Source: Eubacteriales bacterium (GTDB taxonomy: Bacteria > Bacillota > Clostridia > Oscillospirales > CAG-272). From it: 51,443 nucleotides of DNA. A model generated the notes under the pieces. That model saw only the letters and a list, made by a program, of their open reading frames with translations. It was not told the origin of the DNA and did not search any database. Below, piece by piece: positions 40,499 through 51,265 of this stretch (position 1 is its first letter; each line of letters begins with the position of its first letter). The position numbers and the translations under genes are program-made. The stretch spans positions 1 through 51,443 of the forward strand of contig JAZSGQ010000073.1 in NCBI GenBank assembly GCA_045532805.1, in the 5' to 3' direction.

Positions 40499-43400
40499 TT
40501 ACTGACTCTGCTTATCAAGCACCAACACAGCGGCGTTCAGTGCCTTGATGGTGTCTTCAAAGGCCTTTGCGTCCACGGCGGCAAATGCGGCGGCCGCGGC
40601 CTCAAGGTCGGGTGCGTTCTCACGCTTGATACCGTTGTTCATCAGTGCGATGGCACCGGCGGCGGCGTTCAGCGTGGAGTCGCTTACGTCCTCGGATTCC
40701 TCCTCAAACGCACTCTGAATCTGACCCAGGCGCTTCTGAAGGAGCGTCTGACCGAGTTCCAGCGTCTCCAGACCAAACTCGGCACGCTTACGCGTGATCT
40801 CCTTGTTGATCGTGGTGATGTAACTTCTCAACTCGTCGATGGGGTTCGCATTGTCGTTATAAGCGGCAAGGAATGCAAAGTTGGTGTAACGGCCGATGAT
40901 ATAGCTGCCGGGATAGTTGGGAATGGAAGCGAGGTTATTGAACTGCTTCTTGAGCTGTGCGTACTCGGCGCGCGTCCAGGGCATCTCCTCCAGTGCGTGG
41001 AGGTTGGCCGTGGAGTGCTTTGCGGAGGGACCGATGATGGCCACCATCTCGTTGGAGTACTTCACCTGGCAATCCTTACCGGAGTGCCACTTCATGAACG
41101 TCCAGGAGTCCTCCTCGTTCTCACAACCGTTCATCATAACGATTGCGGAAACGGCGGAAACCGCCACGTTGTTGATGTTACCCTCTTCATCCATGATACC
41201 GGGCAGGGGGTAGAACTCCCACAGGCCCTTGATCTCGGTAGCAAATACCGTCAGATGGTTATACGTGCCGGTGTAGCTGGCGAAGCCGATGGGCATCTCA
41301 CCGGTACGGAAGCGGTTTGCAAAATCGTAGGAGTAGGGGAAGGAATACATGGTAAAGTAACTGCACATCGTATCGAATGCCTCAAGACCCATATCCGAGT
41401 CGAGGTTGATTCTCATACCGTCGTCGGCGAAGAGTTCGCCGCCCATCTGGTACAGGAAGATCTTGTAGTCGGTGTGCATACCGATCTGCATGTTGTTTGC
41501 CTGAAGCACAGGCACGGCGGCAAGCACGTCGTCCCAGGTCTTGGGGATCTCGATGTCCAGGTCAGCCAGCACGTCGGTGCGGACGAACATCATATTGAAG
41601 CCCTGGGTCTCGGGCAAGCCATAGTAGTGGAAGACGCCGTCGGCATCCTCGATACCAAGCACGATCATGGCCGCTTCATTGAAGTTGGAATTCTCATTCT
41701 TAATGTAGTTGCCATTTGCGTCCTTGATCTTCTGGAAGTTTTCGTCAACCTTATATTCCAGCGCGAAGTCCGCAAAGCCTTCCTGGTCCTCAACGGGAAG
41801 GAGCGCGCCGCGGATCGCGTAGTTGATCACCGTGTCCTCACCGACACCGATGTAAACGTCGGGACCCATGCCCGAAAGCACGGAGGGCAGCAACGTGCCG
41901 CCTGCGACGAGCTGAAGGTTGACACCCACACCATACTGGGGCGTGAAGTCATTGTTGATCAGGTTACGGAGCACCTGGGCCTGGTCACGGCCCGTGGCGA
42001 TCCACACGTCGATGACGTGCTCGCCCTCTTCGTCCTCACCCGTTGCGCCCATACGGTCGTAGTTACGGAAGAAGGACATGAAGAAGCTCTTGATCTCGTG
42101 CCAAACGGAGGCGAAGAAGCCCGCCGTTGCCTGCGGTGCCTCGGTGCCTACGGGCTGTACGGTGATGCAGTCGAGCTGCAAGGGCTGGGTCTTGGCGTCA
42201 CCAAGCCAGGTGCCGAGCGAGCCGATGTAGGACTTGAGCTGATCCAGATACTTGGCGATCTCGTCCTCGTTGGAGCCCATACGCTCCAGCAACCAGCCGA
42301 CCTGCTCCAGCGTTGCCACGTTCGAGCTCTTTTCGCCCGTGATGGCGGCAAGTTCGGCGGCGATGGCGTACATCTCGCGGGACTGAATGATCATATCGAC
42401 CATCGTATCGGGCATGATACGGGAGAAGCCGTAGTCACGGTACTCGTCGGGAGAAGCGCCCGTCAACTTCAGGATCGCGAGGTAGTCGTCGTTGATCGCG
42501 TCAAGGGACGCCTGCACGCGGCGCACGATGTCACCCATCGAACCCACGGTCACTTCCATCTCGATGGTGTAATCCACACCTGCCTCGAAATAGAAGGAGT
42601 AGTAGATCAGATTGCCGTTCTCGTCCGTTTCGCCGTTGTTCATCATCGTGGACTGCCACTTGGAATCGTAGTTGAAGCGCAGTTCGGTCGCCTCGCTGAA
42701 GGGCACGCCGTCATAGTAACCCTTATCGCCCTCGTTCAGGCCGTCACTGTAAATGTACAGTGCGCGGTTGACGTACATACCGTCCAGCACGTTCTGGCGG
42801 TAGCGCGCACCGATGTTATACATACCCGAAGTGCCCACACGGAAGGTGTAGCGCACCCACTGGCCTGCGGTCTGCCACTTCTCACCGCCGATGGTGTTGA
42901 GCACCGTGCGGCTGGTATCGGCGGGCTGGGTAGCCGCATCGGTACGGTCCTCGATGGGGTACACGGTGTTGGTGGAAGTTGCACCCGTGAACTCAGCCTG
43001 AATGGTCAGGGAGTCCTTACCGGGCTCGATGCCCTCGAATGCCTTGAGGTAGTCGTCGTAACTCACGTAACTCTCGTGAGGAATGAGCGCGATGGACTTG
43101 ACAGTCATGGGCTCATTCACGGCCTCCAGAGAAATGCGAACCTCGCCGTTCTCATCGGGCTCGACGGCAAACAGGAAGGATTCCGAGTAGAAGCCGTCGA
43201 TGTCACGCACCTCGTAGGAGCGCCATTCGGGCGCCTGCACCGTGGTGGGACGGAGTTCGTTGTTGTCGATATCGCTGGTGAGGAAGCGCACCGCATAGGT
43301 GTTGACGAAGGCGGTCTTGCCTGCCGTCCATACCTCGGGGATCGCCACCTCCACGCAGTCGTCCTTCTTTACGGCCTCGGTCTCGGTGAAGCCCGCGGCA

Positions 43401-43939
43401 AGGGCGGCGGCGTAGATCTCGTCAACACTCGCATCATCGTCGCTGACCTTGGCGACGGTGTACGTGTTCTTCCAGATCTTGGGAAGCGTGACGTAGCGCG
43501 CTTCTGCGAACGGAATTTTGCCGTTGATCTTCAGAATACGCTCGACCGCGGCGGCTTTCGCCTGGTCGGGATAGTATTCGATCACGATGCTGTACTTGGC
43601 GGCGCTCTTCACGTCCGTAGTGACCCAGGTAACCGTACCCAGATCGGGAGCGTAGACGGAGCCGTCCTCCAGCACCTTCACCTCGGCAGTGGTCGCCTCG
43701 GCGTCGACCTGACTGCCGGGAATGATCACTGCGCTCGTGGCGTCGGGCAGCTCGGCGTGTTCTTCGATGTACACCTCGTAGCTGTCGGCGTTGAGCTGTT
43801 CCTTGATGTCGGCCAGGTTCTTGTCCGTTACGGAACTGTTGTCATCTTCCGCACCGACGCTCAAAACGGTTGAGCCGCCGATGAGAAAACACAGCGCCAT
43901 AAAGAACGCGAGTAACCGTTGGAACTTGGTTTTCTTCAT
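40499..43939 (-). CDS. Very large extracellular solute-binding protein with N-terminal CBM-like domains
   Basis: Signal peptide; INGKIPFAEA, LNTIGG..W, GRDQAQV, YGLPETQ, FRTGEMPI, PGSYIIGR; GGAGGG RBS. Confidence 0.85.
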   Translation of the reverse strand: MKKTKFQRLLAFFMALCFLIGGSTVLSVGAEDDNSSVTDKNLADIKEQLNADSYEVYIEEHAELPDATSAVIIPGSQVDAEATTAEVKVLEDGSVYAPDLGTVTWVTTDVKSAAKYSIVIEYYPDQAKAAAVERILKINGKIPFAEARYVTLPKIWKNTYTVAKVSDDDASVDEIYAAALAAGFTETEAVKKDDCVEVAIPEVWTAGKTAFVNTYAVRFLTSDIDNNELRPTTVQAPEWRSYEVRDIDGFYSESFLFAVEPDENGEVRISLEAVNEPMTVKSIALIPHESYVSYDDYLKAFEGIEPGKDSLTIQAEFTGATSTNTVYPIEDRTDAATQPADTSRTVLNTIGGEKWQTAGQWVRYTFRVGTSGMYNIGARYRQNVLDGMYVNRALYIYSDGLNEGDKGYYDGVPFSEATELRFNYDSKWQSTMMNNGETDENGNLIYYSFYFEAGVDYTIEMEVTVGSMGDIVRRVQASLDAINDDYLAILKLTGASPDEYRDYGFSRIMPDTMVDMIIQSREMYAIAAELAAITGEKSSNVATLEQVGWLLERMGSNEDEIAKYLDQLKSYIGSLGTWLGDAKTQPLQLDCITVQPVGTEAPQATAGFFASVWHEIKSFFMSFFRNYDRMGATGEDEEGEHVIDVWIATGRDQAQVLRNLINNDFTPQYGVGVNLQLVAGGTLLPSVLSGMGPDVYIGVGEDTVINYAIRGALLPVEDQEGFADFALEYKVDENFQKIKDANGNYIKNENSNFNEAAMIVLGIEDADGVFHYYGLPETQGFNMMFVRTDVLADLDIEIPKTWDDVLAAVPVLQANNMQIGMHTDYKIFLYQMGGELFADDGMRINLDSDMGLEAFDTMCSYFTMYSFPYSYDFANRFRTGEMPIGFASYTGTYNHLTVFATEIKGLWEFYPLPGIMDEEGNINNVAVSAVSAIVMMNGCENEEDSWTFMKWHSGKDCQVKYSNEMVAIIGPSAKHSTANLHALEEMPWTRAEYAQLKKQFNNLASIPNYPGSYIIGRYTNFAFLAAYNDNANPIDELRSYITTINKEITRKRAEFGLETLELGQTLLQKRLGQIQSAFEEESEDVSDSTLNAAAGAIALMNNGIKRENAPDLEAAAAAFAAVDAKAFEDTIKALNAAVLVLDKQSQ

Positions 43940-44062
43940 GTTTCCCTCCTGTGTTCCGATTGCAACACGCAATCTTTGGTTTGCACGTTACGTACGCGCT
44001 ACGCATGCACGCGTCGCGCGAACGCTGACGGCTCGCACAGAGCGAGCCCCACGTATGGAAAT

Positions 44063-44556: not shown

Positions 44557-44632
44557 CCTGCGAAGCAGGATTTCATCGCGCAGCGATTTCATCCACCACA
44601 GGTGGCCTTCATCCGTCGAAGACGGATCTCAT
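44557..44632 (+). repeat. Array of four mini-hairpins separated by an ATTTCAT linker
   Basis: CCTGC-GAA-GCAGG, CGC-GCA-GCG, CCACC-ACA-GGTGG, CCGTC-GAA-GACGG. Confidence 0.8.
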
Positions 44633-44681
44633 TTCGTGCGATCTGTTCAGGATAGGCGCGCGGCGCGAGGTGACAGGAAAA

Positions 44682-44913
44682 GGCCCTCCTTGCGAGTTTT
44701 CCTCGGCTGCGCCGAGCGCGTCAGCACTCGCTTCGCTCGGTTACGGGAAGGAGGACTACCTCTGGTGGTGGGAGGGTAGTCTATTGTTTACTCCCCCACC
44801 ACCGCTGACGCGGTCCCCCGGTCTCGCTGCGGCTCGGTCACGCCACGGCTCTGACATCACACCGTGATGTCATTCACTACCGTGTCGCCGCTTCGCTACC
44901 TCACAAGGGGCGG
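44682..44913. repeat. Inverted pair of REP-like palindromic units, each interrupted by another hairpin element
   Basis: GGTGGTGGGAGGG...CTCCCCCACCACC inverted core; internal TGACATCAC-ACC-GTGATGTCA and TCGGC-TGC-GCCGA hairpins. Confidence 0.6.
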
Positions 44914-45252
44914 ACATGGAGTAACGCGAAGCGAGCGGGCGCGAAACCGCTTCCCTGCCGTCAGATCCTGACGCAAGGTGGCAGATCGGGGCGAAACAAG
45001 TCCGCGCACGGCAAATCGGGGCAATTTCCCTTCCAGAAAGGCAAAAAATCCCGTAACGGGGCGAGTTTTGGCAGTATTCGGCGGCAAAAGGGGGAGACAG
45101 TCGCGGGGCATATTTCCCGTGTCGTTCCCTATCTCATCTTGCGCTTTTTTACGTTCCCCACACGGTGGATATCTCGCACCGTCAGGCGGTGTATGGCGCA
45201 AAAAAGGACGAAACGGCTTAGCGTGTTATCCTTAACGGAGAATACGCTAAAA

Positions 45253-45463
45253 CTAAGTTTGCCCTTTGGGCAAGTGAAGTCATCTTCGATAGTGAAGTTC
45301 ACTTCGTGAGCGAAGTTTCGCCTGCGGCGAAGATAGGGGTTCCCCGAAACGAGCAAAGCGAGTTTTGGGGGTTCCCGAAGTGGGGCAAACTTAACTTCAC
45401 TTGGGTGTAAGCTCAAACTTCACTGCGCAGCAACTTCACTTTTGCGTCAGCAAAAACTTTACA
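45253..45463. repeat. Two inverted arrays of mini-hairpins separated by the 9-nt linker AACTTCACT
   Basis: Left arm AGTGAAGTT-type linkers (45273, 45291, 45309); right arm AACTTCACT (45393, 45416, 45432) and AACTTTACA (45455). Confidence 0.8.
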
Positions 45464-45508
45464 GAGCAAAAAAGAGCTTCACGGAAAGTTTATTAAAAAA
45501 ACAGCAAA

Positions 45509-45539
45509 CACCCCGAGAAACCGTTGATTTCTCGGGGTG
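45509..45539 (-). terminator. Hairpin downstream of pepO
   Basis: CACCCCGAGAAA-CCGTTGA-TTTCTCGGGGTG. Confidence 0.6.
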
Positions 45540-45613
45540 ATAATGTTTTTTAGGGGTGATGTTTTTCGGGGTCCCCGCAAAAGCGTTTTTTCGTGATATG
45601 TTTCGTCCGTTGT

Positions 45614-45666: not shown

Positions 45667-47565
45667 TTACCAAATTACAATACGCTTTTCGGGAGCGAGG
45701 TACATTCCGTCGGCTTCCTTTACGTCAAAGGTTTTGTACCATTCCTCAAAGTTTCTGGGAGGCATATTCGCACGGAGCACGCAAGGACCGTGAACGTCCA
45801 CGGAAAGGAGCATCTGCAGGTATTCGGGACGCGCCTTCTGGCACCATACTCTTGCCCAGTTGCGGAAATATTCTTCGTAGGAAGCGCCCTCGGTGTTTGC
45901 CATAATATCAAGCGTTACGGACATACCGCCGTTATCCGCCATATTCTCACTTACGATAAACGCGCCGTTGACCTTACCCTGAGGAAGCTCAATACCGTCG
46001 AACTGCTCGATCATCTGCTGAACCTTTGCTCCAAATCTCTTGAAATCTTCTTCGGTCCACCAGTCGTTTATATTACCGTTTTCATCGCACTTTGCACCGT
46101 TGGAGTCAAACGCGTGGGAGATCTCGTGGCCGATAACACCGCCGATACCGCCCAGATTTTCGCTTCTGGTCTGCTTAAGGGAGTAGAAGGGAGCCTGCAG
46201 AATAGCCGCAGGGAAGGTGATATCGTTTACAAAAGGATCGTAGCAAGCGTTTACCATATGGCCGGGCATTGCCCAGTTTTCGGGCTCGGTGGGCATATCC
46301 AGCTTGCTCAAGGAATCCTCTTCACGGATAGCCTTCAGAGTAAGCATTATATCAAAGAGGGAATCTTCGGGGTTGAATACAAGCTTTTCGTAAACTGCAC
46401 GTGACTTGTCGGGATAACCCATCTTAACACCCATTGTGGAAAGCTTGAGTATTGCTTTTTCTCTGGTTTCTTCGCCCAGAATTTCGTTTGTCTTGATACG
46501 GGTCTTGTAGGTATCGATAATCTGACGAACTATCTCGGTAATATCCTTCTTCGCCTCTTCGCCGAAGTATTTTACACCGTAGTAAATTCCCACGGGCTCG
46601 GAATACATACTTGAAGCGAGGTTGTATGCAAACTTCTCTATAGACTGCATCTTTGCCACGCCCATAAGCGCACGGCTGTATGCACCGCCCAATTCGCGCA
46701 GCTCTTCGGAAAGGAAGTTGCAGGCTTTCATAAGTCCCGTTACGTATGCCCAGTGCTTGTATTTTTCAAGGCTTTCGCCGTTGAACAGGGTTGCAAATCC
46801 GCCGAAATATCTGGGCTCGGTAACAACCACCGTTTCGGGTACGTGACCGAAAAGACCGGTCAGAATTACGTCAAAGTCAACGGTGGAGAGCATTTCGGAA
46901 ACCTTGGCGGTATCCATAGGATTATACATTTCAACGTATCTTGACCATTCCTCGCTGGTCTTGGCAAGAGAACCGATCACCTCGTCAAACGCCAAAGCGT
47001 CGTTAACATACTGTTCTTGCTGTTCGGGGGTAAGGTCGGTCTGCGCCATAACAGCCTTGGCAACGTTTGTCCATATGCCGATTATTTGCGCCTTCTGCGC
47101 CGCCATCTCGGGCTTATAGTAAGATGCATCGGGCAAAATTACGCTTGCGCCCTGAAGGTATACCAGGCGGCGCTTGGTATTCTTCATATCCGTATCAACG
47201 CCTATATTCATAGGGGTGGGGATTCCCTTTAAGGACAAAGTCTTGTAAAGACGGCTGAAATCCTCGGTGGTTTTAACCTCATCAAGTACGGCGAGGTTGT
47301 TGAGTGCGGGTGTAATACCGTGCGCCGCTTTTCTGTCTGCGTCCTTTGCAATAGCGTACAATTCGCAAGCTCTTTTAAGATGTTCGTCGGGGTACTCACC
47401 GCTTGCGGACATAGCTTCAAATTCACCCATCATTATCTTCTCAACACCGTCTGCCAGCTCGGTAAAGCCGCCTGCCGTAGGTTTGTCATCGGGGATAACC
47501 AGCTTATCCAGGGTTTCTTGGTTTACAAATCCGTAAAGATCGTCTTGTATTCTGATGTTTTCCAT
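45667..47565 (-). CDS. pepO: M13 family metalloendopeptidase (PepO-like)
   Basis: QDDLYGFVN, VNACY, FPAAILQ, HEISH zinc motif, ENMADNGG. Confidence 0.92.
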   Translation of the reverse strand: MENIRIQDDLYGFVNQETLDKLVIPDDKPTAGGFTELADGVEKIMMGEFEAMSASGEYPDEHLKRACELYAIAKDADRKAAHGITPALNNLAVLDEVKTTEDFSRLYKTLSLKGIPTPMNIGVDTDMKNTKRRLVYLQGASVILPDASYYKPEMAAQKAQIIGIWTNVAKAVMAQTDLTPEQQEQYVNDALAFDEVIGSLAKTSEEWSRYVEMYNPMDTAKVSEMLSTVDFDVILTGLFGHVPETVVVTEPRYFGGFATLFNGESLEKYKHWAYVTGLMKACNFLSEELRELGGAYSRALMGVAKMQSIEKFAYNLASSMYSEPVGIYYGVKYFGEEAKKDITEIVRQIIDTYKTRIKTNEILGEETREKAILKLSTMGVKMGYPDKSRAVYEKLVFNPEDSLFDIMLTLKAIREEDSLSKLDMPTEPENWAMPGHMVNACYDPFVNDITFPAAILQAPFYSLKQTRSENLGGIGGVIGHEISHAFDSNGAKCDENGNINDWWTEEDFKRFGAKVQQMIEQFDGIELPQGKVNGAFIVSENMADNGGMSVTLDIMANTEGASYEEYFRNWARVWCQKARPEYLQMLLSVDVHGPCVLRANMPPRNFEEWYKTFDVKEADGMYLAPEKRIVIW

Positions 47566-47777: not shown

Positions 47778-48896
47778 TTATTGTGCACCTTTCTTTAAGT
47801 TGCAGTCGCGGCAGAGCATTTGGCAATTTTCAGGGGTAGTATGTCCACCTTTCGACCACGCTTTTATGTGGTCGGCGTGCATATCTTCGAACTCAAATTC
47901 TTCGCCACAGATTGCACACTTATGATTTTGCTTTTCATAAGCCGCAAGGGCATCACGGCGGTCAAAGGCGCGAATAGAAAGTTTCTTTTCTTCTCCGGTC
48001 AGCAGATACTCGTAAATGCCGGATTTCTTCGTTACATCTTCGTCGCCCATAAGTCGCTGAATCTCAAGCTCAAGCTTTTTGGGATCAAGATCTGTGCGCT
48101 TGCCGTGTTCGTTATAATACAAGCCCCAAGGTAAGCCCTTCATTTCTTTGCGCTTCTTCGGGAAGATGGCTTGTACCCAATCAATAACCGAACGGAAATA
48201 ATTCCAAAGTGATACGGCGCTGGGGTCATGCTGATGCTCGGACATATAACCTTCGATGGTTTTACCCTCGGCACTTGCCGCCCACAGTATGGCCGTTTCA
48301 AGATACTCCTGACGAATGCTCGAACCCTTCAAATAATCGCCGGCGAGCGCATCTGCCGCACATCCTGTTTTGGAAAAGTATCTCTTGGCATCGGAAGTCC
48401 ACGAGCCTGCATACACCGCATTCCGCAATTCTTGATCAGTAAGTTCTTCACCTGCTATATTTATGATTTTAAACCATTCCAATTTTTCTGACTCGGTTCC
48501 GTTGCAAACATAGATAAATAGTTCATAATCCAGAATCGCATCACGTTTATCTTTGGGCAGATTTGCAAACAGCATATCATCTACAGAGAAATTACCATCT
48601 ATGTATTCGCAAAGAGAAATCGTGCGCTGCTGACCATCTAAAACTTCGTATCGGGGAGTATCGGGATCGTCCTCATATTCCTCACCACGGTCTACCCAAT
48701 ACATAACATTTAAAGGGAGTCCCTTCATAACAGTACGAATTACTTCGTTGCGCTGTTCATCCTTATATACAAACTCACGCTGATATTTCGGGCGAATATC
48801 TAGTTGTTCATCGTATCCAACAACACCTTCTTCGGCATCATTGAAATAATTGTCTGTGATATCTCGTATAGTTATTTTTCGTTCCTCTATATGCAT
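47778..48896 (-). CDS. DUF262 (GmrS/ParB-like) plus HNH endonuclease
   Basis: RPKYQREFVY, VLDGQQR, FKIIN...QELRNA; C-terminal CAIC...DHIKAWSKGG...NCQMLCRDCN. Confidence 0.88.
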   Translation of the reverse strand: MHIEERKITIRDITDNYFNDAEEGVVGYDEQLDIRPKYQREFVYKDEQRNEVIRTVMKGLPLNVMYWVDRGEEYEDDPDTPRYEVLDGQQRTISLCEYIDGNFSVDDMLFANLPKDKRDAILDYELFIYVCNGTESEKLEWFKIINIAGEELTDQELRNAVYAGSWTSDAKRYFSKTGCAADALAGDYLKGSSIRQEYLETAILWAASAEGKTIEGYMSEHQHDPSAVSLWNYFRSVIDWVQAIFPKKRKEMKGLPWGLYYNEHGKRTDLDPKKLELEIQRLMGDEDVTKKSGIYEYLLTGEEKKLSIRAFDRRDALAAYEKQNHKCAICGEEFEFEDMHADHIKAWSKGGHTTPENCQMLCRDCNLKKGAQ

Positions 48897-50047
48897 TATT
48901 GTTTACCTCCTTTGGGTGGTTCGGGATTTTTGTTGCGAATAAAAATTCTTTTGTAGATCATCGTGGCAACACCATTTTTATAGACGCCAGCAGTGGGGTT
49001 CCCTTCTTTATAAGAGCCTTTCCCACCGGAACTATAATAATCGTCAACAAACTTCTGTGTCAGACCAGGTGTCGTTTTATATTCATCAGGTACTATACCA
49101 TTGTCACTAGTTCCAAGTATTTCGAATTGGTCAGGATTATATTTATCCATGAAAGTTATCGGAACTCCCATAACACCTGCGTAATCAAAAGGAATATCGG
49201 AAACCTTATCAATATTTATTGCATCATAATTGACATATTTGAGATGAAGATACGGATCATATCGTCTAACTAGAATTAATTCTTCGTGTCTCTTTTTAAT
49301 ATCTAGGTTAGTAAACCAACAAATATTGCCAAGAGACCGCCATTTTTGCCCAGCCTCATCCTCCCAATATCGAGTTTCTCGTGCTTCATAATACTCGGGC
49401 ACCATAAATGCCATATCGCCGGACTTGTCTCCGAGCCAAATTTTGTTATCTCGTAATAATGGGAAGATCTCTTTATAGGTAATAGCGTTTTGGTTACCGA
49501 TAACGATGAAACTTTTATTATTATCTTGTAATACTGCTATATATTCACGGAACAAGGAAAAAGGCGGATTTGTAACAATAATGTCAGATTCCTTAAGAAG
49601 ACATAAACATTCTTCAGACCTAAAATCTCCATCACCTTCAAGTTCGGAAAGCTCATTTTCTCCAGTTTTAAAGAGCTCGGCAACATCGAACATATCAATG
49701 CCGCCATCACCTGTTTTATCGTATACTTTCGTCACGATAGCTTTGTATGCCTTGTTGTGTTTGCTTTCTTCTATTCCAGTAACATCAAACAATGAAAGCT
49801 GAGTGTTTGCAACAGGTGATGAGGCATAACAAGTAGCAATTAGTTTCTTTAACCCTAAACGGTTAAAGTTTAAAACGAAGTATTTAAAAAAGTTGCTTTC
49901 AAATGGATCATCACAATTACAAAAGACGGTCTTATCCTTGAAATGTTTTCTATAATGTCGCATTTCTTTTTCCACATCTGTAAGTTGTGTATAAAACTCA
50001 TCTTCTTTAGCAAGTCTGGCTGCCCCTAAGCTTTTATTTCCTGCCAT
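48896..50047 (-). CDS. EcoRI-family adenine-specific DNA methyltransferase
   Basis: DEFYT, CNCDDP, GDGDFRS, DIIVTNPPFS, GVMGVPITF. Confidence 0.9.
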   Translation of the reverse strand: MAGNKSLGAARLAKEDEFYTQLTDVEKEMRHYRKHFKDKTVFCNCDDPFESNFFKYFVLNFNRLGLKKLIATCYASSPVANTQLSLFDVTGIEESKHNKAYKAIVTKVYDKTGDGGIDMFDVAELFKTGENELSELEGDGDFRSEECLCLLKESDIIVTNPPFSLFREYIAVLQDNNKSFIVIGNQNAITYKEIFPLLRDNKIWLGDKSGDMAFMVPEYYEARETRYWEDEAGQKWRSLGNICWFTNLDIKKRHEELILVRRYDPYLHLKYVNYDAINIDKVSDIPFDYAGVMGVPITFMDKYNPDQFEILGTSDNGIVPDEYKTTPGLTQKFVDDYYSSGGKGSYKEGNPTAGVYKNGVATMIYKRIFIRNKNPEPPKGGKQ

Positions 50048-50053
50048 CTCAAA

Positions 50054-50641
50054 TCACCCCACAATTCCGCAGTCTGTTTTTAGTGCTTCAATTTTTTCAA
50101 AAAACTCATATTTATCTTTTGAGCCACGCACTAATGCCAGTATATCGTCCACTTTCCTGTCATATTGGTTTGTTGTGAAGAAGTAGTACAAAATATTATT
50201 TAGATCGGCACTTAAGTCATTCAATTCGTAATAATTGATGTAAAATGCCTTTTTAGCATAATTCGTTATTCTTCTGACATCAGAGATATATGGCTTGGTA
50301 ATAGCGTTATGTTTGTTTCTTGCAATCCCACCAATTTTAGAAAACACCTTGTCTACAGATTCTTCTGTGTATTTCCCATCGTCATCTTTAACTAAATACT
50401 GTGACAAAGCAGCCTCAATGCTTTCGCATAATATATCAAAGCCGAATTCTCGTATCCATTTTTTACAATTAAGAATGCCAGTTTCGCTAAATGAATATCC
50501 AGTTATAGAAATTAAGTCTTGAATTTTTTCAAGCATTTCATCTAAAGTCATTTTATATGATGTTACTGTTTGCTTTGAACCACAAAAGTTGCAGAACACA
50601 GATCCATCAGCAATGTCTTTTTTACAAGCAATACATTCCAT
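50054..50641 (-). CDS. Zinc-ribbon-containing hypothetical protein
   Basis: CIAC-X10-CNFC at the N-terminus; AAGGAG RBS. Confidence 0.75.
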   Translation of the reverse strand: MECIACKKDIADGSVFCNFCGSKQTVTSYKMTLDEMLEKIQDLISITGYSFSETGILNCKKWIREFGFDILCESIEAALSQYLVKDDDGKYTEESVDKVFSKIGGIARNKHNAITKPYISDVRRITNYAKKAFYINYYELNDLSADLNNILYYFFTTNQYDRKVDDILALVRGSKDKYEFFEKIEALKTDCGIVG

Positions 50642-50659
50642 AATAACTCCTTCTATCTT

Positions 50660-51265
50660 TCACAATTCCTCCGTCTTAAAAGTCGTATAACCCTCATAGT
50701 AGTAGCTGTGGTCGATGCCTTTCATATAGACCTCGCGGCTATGGATATTGTCGGTCAGGGCGTTTTTCAGGATATGCTTGATCTCGATATCCTTAATGGG
50801 ACTGCGTTCCATTGCAAGCAGATAGTCCTCTTTATCCACCTTGCTCCAATCGACAACCCTGCCGATCTCCTTCTTAAAGATGCAATCCAGCCAGGTGCGT
50901 GTGCTTCTGCCGTTGCCCTCACGGAAGGGGTGGGCGATATTCATTTCCACGTACTTCTCCACGATCTCGTCAAAAGTGGACTGGGGCATTTTGTCAATAT
51001 TAGCAAGAGCCGCTTCAAGGTACATCAAGGGAGCGAAACGGAAGTTGCCTTTAGAAATATTTACGGTTCTGAGTTTTCCAGCAAAGTCGTAGATCTCATC
51101 AAAGAGAAACTTGTGAATTGCCTTGAGAGCAGAGAATTTTCCTGCTTCCAGTTTATCAAGCATACCGTTTTCAAAAAGTTCAAGAGCCTTTTTCTTGCTG
51201 ATGCGTTCTTCCTCACGGGCAAGGTCTGCGGAACTTGTAAGCCCCAATTTATTTTCAAGTGCCAT
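50660..51265 (-). CDS. fic: Fic-domain AMP transferase, class III (C-terminal auto-inhibitory helix)
   Basis: HPFREGNGRSTR catalytic motif; SYYYEG inhibitory motif at the C-terminus. Confidence 0.9.
   Translation of the reverse strand: MALENKLGLTSSADLAREEERISKKKALELFENGMLDKLEAGKFSALKAIHKFLFDEIYDFAGKLRTVNISKGNFRFAPLMYLEAALANIDKMPQSTFDEIVEKYVEMNIAHPFREGNGRSTRTWLDCIFKKEIGRVVDWSKVDKEDYLLAMERSPIKDIEIKHILKNALTDNIHSREVYMKGIDHSYYYEGYTTFKTEEL

Follow-up and report, generated by a model that had tools for sequence, protein, structure and literature searches.

A Gut-1-type hairpin array at an accessory-region edge, with a candidate protein reader and a candidate serine recombinase mover

What is the short series of hairpins at 45252–45462 of the window (the term that we use for the whole 51,443-nucleotide stretch of DNA that was analysed), what might read it, and how did it come to lie there? 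An earlier note on this DNA described two inverted arrays of constant linkers and variable hairpins, and proposed an undescribed, strand-specific element family, REPIN- or BIME-like, mobilised in trans and sitting at a core/accessory junction. Our answer retains part of that proposal: on balance, sequence comparison leads us to believe that this locus (array B) is a gene-less copy of a Gut-1-type repeat, that its constant words are likely binding sites for a PF05635 protein, and that it likely arrived on a shell moved in trans by a DUF4368 recombinase.

Architecture and identity of the array

All of the hairpins, linkers and loops that the earlier note described are present. The left arm (45252–45331, plus strand) has four GTGAAGT-type words (45252–45258, degenerate; 45274–45280; 45292–45298; 45310–45316, with one change), each followed by a different hairpin (45259–45273, 45281–45291, 45299–45309 and 45317–45331). 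The right arm (45381–45462, plus strand) has ACTTCAC words at 45394–45400, 45417–45423, 45433–45439 and, in degenerate form, 45456–45462; between them stand hairpins with the loops GTA, GCA and GTCA, and the first hairpin of this arm is imperfect. Loop polarity tracks linker polarity, again as described. One correction applies to the linker itself: among 330 distinct spacers of the family, 307 have the terminal bases of the 9-mer, T and A, paired across the hairpin, so these two bases close it and the unpaired linker is the 7-mer ACTTCAC/GTGAAGT. The pattern is not due to chance, given that array B contains three strict linker-hairpin-linker units against a maximum of one in 200 dinucleotide shuffles, and that the folding of both strands (z about −4.7) was equalled in stability by 0 of 200 shuffles. 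Folding also indicates that the two arms are able to pair word to word.

Between the arms, a palindrome of 43 bp that belongs to a second repeat type has been inserted (45333–45375, to which no strand applies), with CGAAG flanks at 45328–45332 and 45376–45380. It is missing from eight other aligned copies of the element and present in close relatives of the window locus; the genome has a single full copy of it, and its core word occurs at 10 sites. Contigs from other gut samples cover the locus, which is therefore no assembly artefact: X1 and X2 span 45294–45557 with six differences, and X1 carries the M13 gene at ~98%. Another contig, X3, has a near-identical left arm, but different sequence before it. 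More generally, at least four repeat types are crowded into the 1.7-kb intergenic region, for which promoter and terminator scans gave results at chance level. Array A (44565–44634, minus strand) is built in the same way but consists of one arm only, whose word is ATGAAAT; it has no end motif (see below) and a Gut-1 score of 40.4 bits; a dispersed palindromic repeat family with several genome copies lies at 44684–44820, and another palindromic repeat of 114 bp (44790–44903) is 97% identical to C66:14317–14430 and occurs in several relatives too.

The family is not undescribed, as had been proposed: the left arm is the Rfam Gut-1 motif (RF01706), which it matches at 45250–45321, over model positions 1–77, with 42.7 bits (E 1e-6), a score below the 50-bit gathering cut-off of Gut-1. 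Variable hairpins and a constant purine-rich word run across the whole model in this arm. The genome contains 17 Gut-1 matches at E ≤ 1; five exceed the cut-off, three with array B's word. What does stand is the description of a dispersed, strand-polar, non-coding family, with 33 of the genome's 41 exact 9-mers falling into seven clusters, and with at least 127 loci, mostly in gut Clostridia and many of them inverted pairs, returned by a three-word pattern search of GTDB. No Pfam match was obtained for ORFs that overlap array B, and no CRISPR family appears among the Rfam matches of the window. Among 60 GTDB array loci scanned, 6 contain tRNA genes, 3 of which adjoin the array; orphan arrays are thus mostly not tRNA-linked. 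Hairpin spacers accompanied 7 of 114 two-word matches on viral contigs; true hairpin-spaced arrays of array B's word occur on a few such contigs (L300, L326, L327, L386, L399).

The mobile shell and its candidate mover

In a nine-copy alignment, the array proves to be part of an element ~350 bp long that is bounded by 22-bp inverted ends and that we name the shell; the element starts further left than the array of the earlier note. In the window, the left end of the shell occupies 45218–45250 (plus strand), with its 22-bp end motif at 45221–45242 within a hairpin, and is a putative att half-site of a DUF4368 large serine recombinase. It adjoins an A-tract and what is presumed to be an arm of a host terminator hairpin (45200–45219, plus strand); the last two bases of this stretch are TT, the dinucleotide next to most shells and a putative crossover core. 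Shell similarity ends near 45476, and the window contains no right shell end after array B. We considered a right end situated beyond the M13 and restriction genes, an arrangement that is unsupported: such an end is absent from the window, and no matching terminator arm was found in the genome at up to two mismatches. For the window copy, the best interpretation is a shell that broke or was rearranged, on the edge of an accessory region: it is itself a truncated passenger that, in the absence of a right end, is probably immobile now.

That this edge is a core/accessory junction, as the earlier note proposed, is borne out by its flanking genes. On the core side, the gene for a 1157-aa protein that heads an ABC-transporter gene cluster (40499–43972, minus strand) is found in 31 of 39 genus genomes; on the accessory side, the M13 (PepO-like) peptidase (45667–47565, minus strand) is found in 0 of 39 at E ≤ 1e-100, and accompanies the array in other gut samples. 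A terminator-like hairpin (45509–45539, minus strand) lies downstream of the peptidase gene, and GC drops rightwards from ~56% to below 40%. An array within ~1.5 kb was seen in 0 of 11 orthologous loci, which is a weak test for a restored empty site. The 1157-aa protein has no Pfam or NCBIfam match; the low-GC accessory block (47778–51265) contains genes for a GmrSD-HNH nuclease, an EcoRI-type adenine methylase and a Fic-domain protein, and a 195-aa gene without an assigned family.

Elsewhere, the end motif, which gave zero matches in controls, is present in 21 of 40 genomes of the genus and 26 of 401 of the order. We examined 47 end-motif loci, 26 of which have both ends: 24 measure 284–392 bp, with at least eight different words, and two are longer and carry genes. 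These shells sit in terminator loops between 2-bp direct repeats. In 31 of 36 rows the repeat is found one base outside the shell ends, whereas 2000 shuffles gave a mean of 16.5 and a maximum of 26 (two elements are counted twice among the rows, and this offset is the best of 27 tried), and flanks form inverted arms of at least 8 bp in 20 of 36 rows, against 1.2 when shuffled. One shell, of 1231 bp, contains an array, a promoter, a PF05635 gene and a cargo gene; its genome also has the recombinase element (L481, L524). Plasmids that we searched gave no shell match, and the viral contigs searched gave no shell end and no confirmed recombinase relative.

Some larger shells (L434, L427, L425, L419) have other passengers: a DUF559-like nuclease, accompanied by palindromic repeats of its own; a broken RAYT-like frame with an acetyltransferase-like gene; an HTH_3 gene; and a 127-aa gene of no assigned family. 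These are often separated by a recurring hairpin motif, and the names DUF559-like, RAYT-like and acetyltransferase-like are our own reading of the translations. At C42:15313 of this genome, the left-end hairpin stands alone (~30 bp) inside a terminator loop; it is possibly a minimal element or an excision scar.

Another observation to emerge from the end motif is its association with a recombinase. In five loci that were found via the motif, it lies 53–55 bp after the stop codon of a protein with Resolvase, Recombinase, zinc ribbon and DUF4368 domains. A diverged end motif also follows a 68% relative, found by protein search in the genus, and the motif follows 0 of 10 relatives at 31–43%; five of the six recombinase loci with an end motif were found through the motif itself, and only L515 independently. 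In four genomes the other end of the element lies on another contig, with a matching terminator arm. Direct repeats of 2 bp are left by TnpX-type enzymes (PMC3158075), and the clade that DUF4368 characterises is multi-targeting, with a TT core in one example (bioRxiv 2021.11.05.467528). None of the shells that we examined encodes a recombinase; larger elements bounded by the same ends do. This genome, which is 92% complete, yielded no close recombinase, and neither did the shell-rich genus members G002, G010 and G023; genome G038 has the recombinase and showed no shell motif. The shell ends with their 2-bp repeats, and the same ends on recombinase-encoding elements, suggest that the earlier proposal of mobilisation in trans was probably correct, the likely mover being the DUF4368 serine recombinase. 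At L500:18877–19581 we noted a recombinase with an internal deletion (RHH_1 plus DUF4368, 234 aa), with a shell-type end still after it.

The shell does not explain all of the spread: most arrays that lie 3' of tRNA, tmRNA, rlmD or guaA ends have no shell end, which points to a second route of spread. At C99:14500–18675 and C64:1–700 of this genome (G000), cassettes of an array plus a four-helix-bundle gene are stacked behind repeated rlmD-like 3' ends (the rlmD name is read from the translation), which suggests repeated integration there by another system.

A four-helix-bundle partner and the words that it may read

The genome encodes two PF05635 (Avd-like) proteins, both on contig C99, each gene directly behind its own array; one of these arrays has array B's word, and the other has TCGATAT. 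Seven of the 127 GTDB array loci contain a PF05635 gene (47 of the loci have short flanks only); six of the genes are directly beside the array, and all six read away from the ACTTCAC arm. A family search found PF05635 genes in 66 of 121 genomes. Among the best 110 of 164 non-self matches, 62 genes have at least two hairpin-spaced 7-mer units upstream, and a further 20 have at least three tandem heptamers; the remaining 28 satisfy neither rule, though many show degenerate arrays by eye. Control genes gave 0 of 250 for hairpin-spaced arrays and 0 of 250 for tandem heptamers. One deep clade (L168–L172, L196, L198, L217) has inverted tandem heptamers on both sides of the gene, without hairpins.

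The partner protein scores above both the PF05635 and the TIGR02436 cut-offs, has the four-helix fold, and matches 2RLD by sequence (E 4.8e-21); its fold gives TM 0.88 against 2RLD and TM 0.83 against Avd (4DWL). Its predicted oligomeric state is that of a pentamer, as in 2RLD, 2GSC and Avd. The likeness of PF05635 to Avd has been noted (PMC10053308); Avd forms a pentameric barrel with positive charge (PMC6182149) and binds RNA, carried over its barrel (bioRxiv 2023.10.23.563531). Our literature searches did not find sequence-specific reading of heptamers by PF05635- or Avd-type proteins in print.

We labelled 85 arrays by hand and compared the 80 that have an R-T-G/T-A word with their neighbouring proteins (the tree omits two broken proteins). 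Linker base 1 tracks residues 4 and 7 in 79 of 80: of the 40 arrays with G at base 1, 39 go with Arg7 and one with His, all 40 with A at base 1 go with proteins that lack Arg7, and residue 4 is Ser (once Thr) when base 1 is G, and Asn or Asp when it is A. Linker base 5 tracks residue 65 in 76 of 78, being A with Gln or His65 in 39 of 41 and T with Glu65 in 37 of 37. Contacts of Arg with guanine, and of Asn or Gln with adenine, are classic in base recognition. Among the five excluded rows, two have G at base 1 without Arg7 (GCTAAAT type) and two have Arg7 with T (TCGATAT type). The residue-4 rule was also applied to 31 unlabelled tandem-heptamer loci, and fits 17 of the 18 that have a clear first base; 7 of the 31 rows are mixed, 6 are uncalled, and some calls are on the wrong strand.

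Is this covariation a reading code, or linkage? It might be that the protein does not read the word at all: array and gene are passed on and recombine as one block, their covariation is that of linked sequence, and the array serves another enzyme or none. Codons 4 and 7 are close to the array, and joint recombination could inflate the match; some N-termini also appear to have been swapped between clades (L201, L265), and only 7 of the 127 array loci have the gene. On a tree built without the N-terminal columns, base 1 and the residue trait each change 13 times, but few contrasts are independent on supported branches: three for base 1 (p 0.25) and one for base 5 and residue 65, which change four to five times. 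Bearing on the other side, both base-1 states occur inside five different linker families, in which base 1 alone changes, in all copies, together with residues 4 and 7; this is not expected from block exchange between clades. The closest disjoint pairs agree on the base-1 rule in 21 of 21 cases, and the rule extends to the tandem-heptamer clades and to residue 65, whose codon is deep in the gene (~200 bp). Gene-less copies, for their part, are expected if the shell spreads arrays. We consider linkage an improbable explanation, and regard the covariation, phylogenetically underpowered though it is, as likely to be a reading code.

A mechanism consistent with that code can be sketched from these comparisons. 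When the DNA is unwound or extruded, cGNAg mini-hairpins would fold out and bring the 7-mers together, and the two arms could pair word to word; hairpin-spaced 7-mers would thereby resemble the plain tandem heptamers that stand beside other family members. The pentamer would read base 1 with residues 4 and 7 (Ser4 and Arg7 for G; Asn4 or Asp4 for A) and base 5 with residue 65 (Gln or His for A; Glu for T). For array B, the cognate protein would be the C99 product (C99:15085–15438, minus strand; Ser4, Arg7, His65), the same word being present upstream of its gene. Binding beside the promoter of the gene might dampen its own expression, and orphan arrays would be passenger binding sites; this is the step that we hold to be weakest. 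The recombinase would excise the shell as a circle and insert it into terminator loops through a 2-bp core.

DNA or RNA, and the relation to known systems

The same arrays could instead act as RNA, produced by read-through from tRNA, rlmD or other genes, with an Avd-like pentamer that binds the words and controls translation or stability. In the structural relative Avd, RNA lies over the barrel; 38 of 85 arrays follow a tRNA or tmRNA within 480 bp; and no −10-like box separates the last word from the start codon in 37 of 85, the cognate C99 gene among them. This gene starts only 23 nt after its array, without a −10 box, so that the array is probably transcribed at C99. Weinberg et al. described Gut-1 in 2010 as RNA from human gut metagenomes and rated it certainly RNA, but the evidence listed with that rating is covariation and variable stems, not transcription or tetraloops (PMC2864571). 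The loops themselves argue against an RNA. Among 503 spacers, 405 are perfect small-loop hairpins, and 285 of these are triloops; UUCG is absent and there are 16 GNRA tetraloops. GNA triloops number 170 on the ACTTCAC strand versus 10 on the other (66 versus 6 distinct spacers), and a C-G pair closes 362 of the 405 hairpins. DNA-type cGNAg loops are thus favoured, and cGNAg-type mini-hairpins are far more stable as DNA than as RNA (PMC13037366). Many arrays, moreover, sit behind a terminator and ahead of a promoter, and 48 of 85 have a −10-like box in the interval from the last word to the start codon, versus 17 in in-gene controls. RNAalifold gave 0 compensatory changes in 19 pairs of nine close left arms, copies that are too alike to inform. 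Among the sequencing runs, all in the form of contigs, none contained half of the words, and the one RNA run gave only pieces from related repeats and genes, which favours neither reading. We judge an RNA role for the array to be unlikely, if worth serious thought, and clearly favour the DNA form.

We also weighed a single-stranded DNA element of the REP/REPIN kind, moved by RAYT or another HUH enzyme, or else a MITE of a DDE transposase. The DNA-type loops and the inverted ends with a short direct repeat would suit such an element; there is, too, the broken RAYT-like frame (in our own reading of the translation) inside the larger shell L427, and the shell-free arrays have no assigned mover. 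Against this, the end motif is common to serine recombinase elements instead. No array or end motif lies within ~1.5 kb of 27 Y1_Tnp loci from the genus (none is flanked by the repeats) or beside the one Y1_Tnp gene of this genome, which is IS200-like. As candidate DDE or DEDD partners of a MITE, IS110 (1 of 40 genomes, one locus) and DUF772 (2 of 40, two loci) have no array or end motif nearby, IS1595 transposase is found in 0 of 40, and none of the three shares ends with the shell. We hold a RAYT- or transposase-driven element to be very improbable, and the REPIN/BIME-like label of the earlier note is unsupported.

The preferred reading, of a PF05635 binding array carried by a recombinase-moved shell, has a wider form that we advance tentatively, and with more doubt than confidence: PF05635 proteins may be a large, overlooked class of reprogrammable nucleic-acid readers, whose pentamers would read 7-base words between extruded DNA mini-hairpins by a residue-to-base code, while a DUF4368 shuttle would seed arrays of at least eight specificities into terminators of gut Clostridia, and Gut-1 would be a protein-binding element of DNA and not an RNA. 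The parts are known families; we did not find Gut-1, PF05635 and the recombinase connected in the open-access literature (most subscription papers lay outside the scope of this search). It would join three orphans: Gut-1, which has had no function since 2010; the widespread PF05635 proteins, which have solved structures and no function; and a multi-targeting clade of serine recombinases. If the code holds, it would provide a new small programmable binder, and, if the mover is as proposed, the recombinase and its natural minimal substrate would make a terminator-targeting integration tool for gut Clostridia.

How does this family compare with known systems? With the Gut-1 motif it shares at least three variable hairpins linked by a constant GUGAAAU-type word. 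The Gut-1 model describes one arm, as a free-standing RNA of unassigned role, whereas array B has two inverted arms, and the family as a whole has many word types, a protein gene beside complete copies, a mobile shell and DNA-type loops. CRISPR arrays consist of repeats of ~23–47 bp and unique, non-palindromic spacers; here, in contrast, a 7-bp word alternates with mostly palindromic spacers of 7–29 bp. REP, BIME and REPIN elements, with their RAYT, are dispersed intergenic hairpins that form inverted pairs, and their gene-less copies outnumber the gene-linked ones; the present family is alike in all of these respects. It differs from REP and REPIN in that its hairpins vary and its linker is constant: there is no conserved palindrome (330 of the 503 spacers are distinct), and no link to RAYT was found.

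The partner protein shares its family score and fold with the PF05635/TIGR02436 structures (2RLD, 2GSC) and with the Avd of DGRs; a DGR would have a reverse transcriptase and template/variable repeats beside its Avd-like gene, and no such neighbour recurs among the loci that we clustered. The candidate mover, finally, has the Resolvase, Recombinase, zinc ribbon and DUF4368 architecture of the TnpX, TndX and DUF4368 enzymes, and the shell has the 2-bp direct repeat and the many target sites of TnpX/TndX-type elements (Tn4451, Tn6104) and of multi-targeting DUF4368 recombinases. Unlike TnpX/TndX elements, the shell has no recombinase gene and is ~350 bp long; its targets are terminator loops, and its contents are repeat arrays or small genes that are interchangeable.
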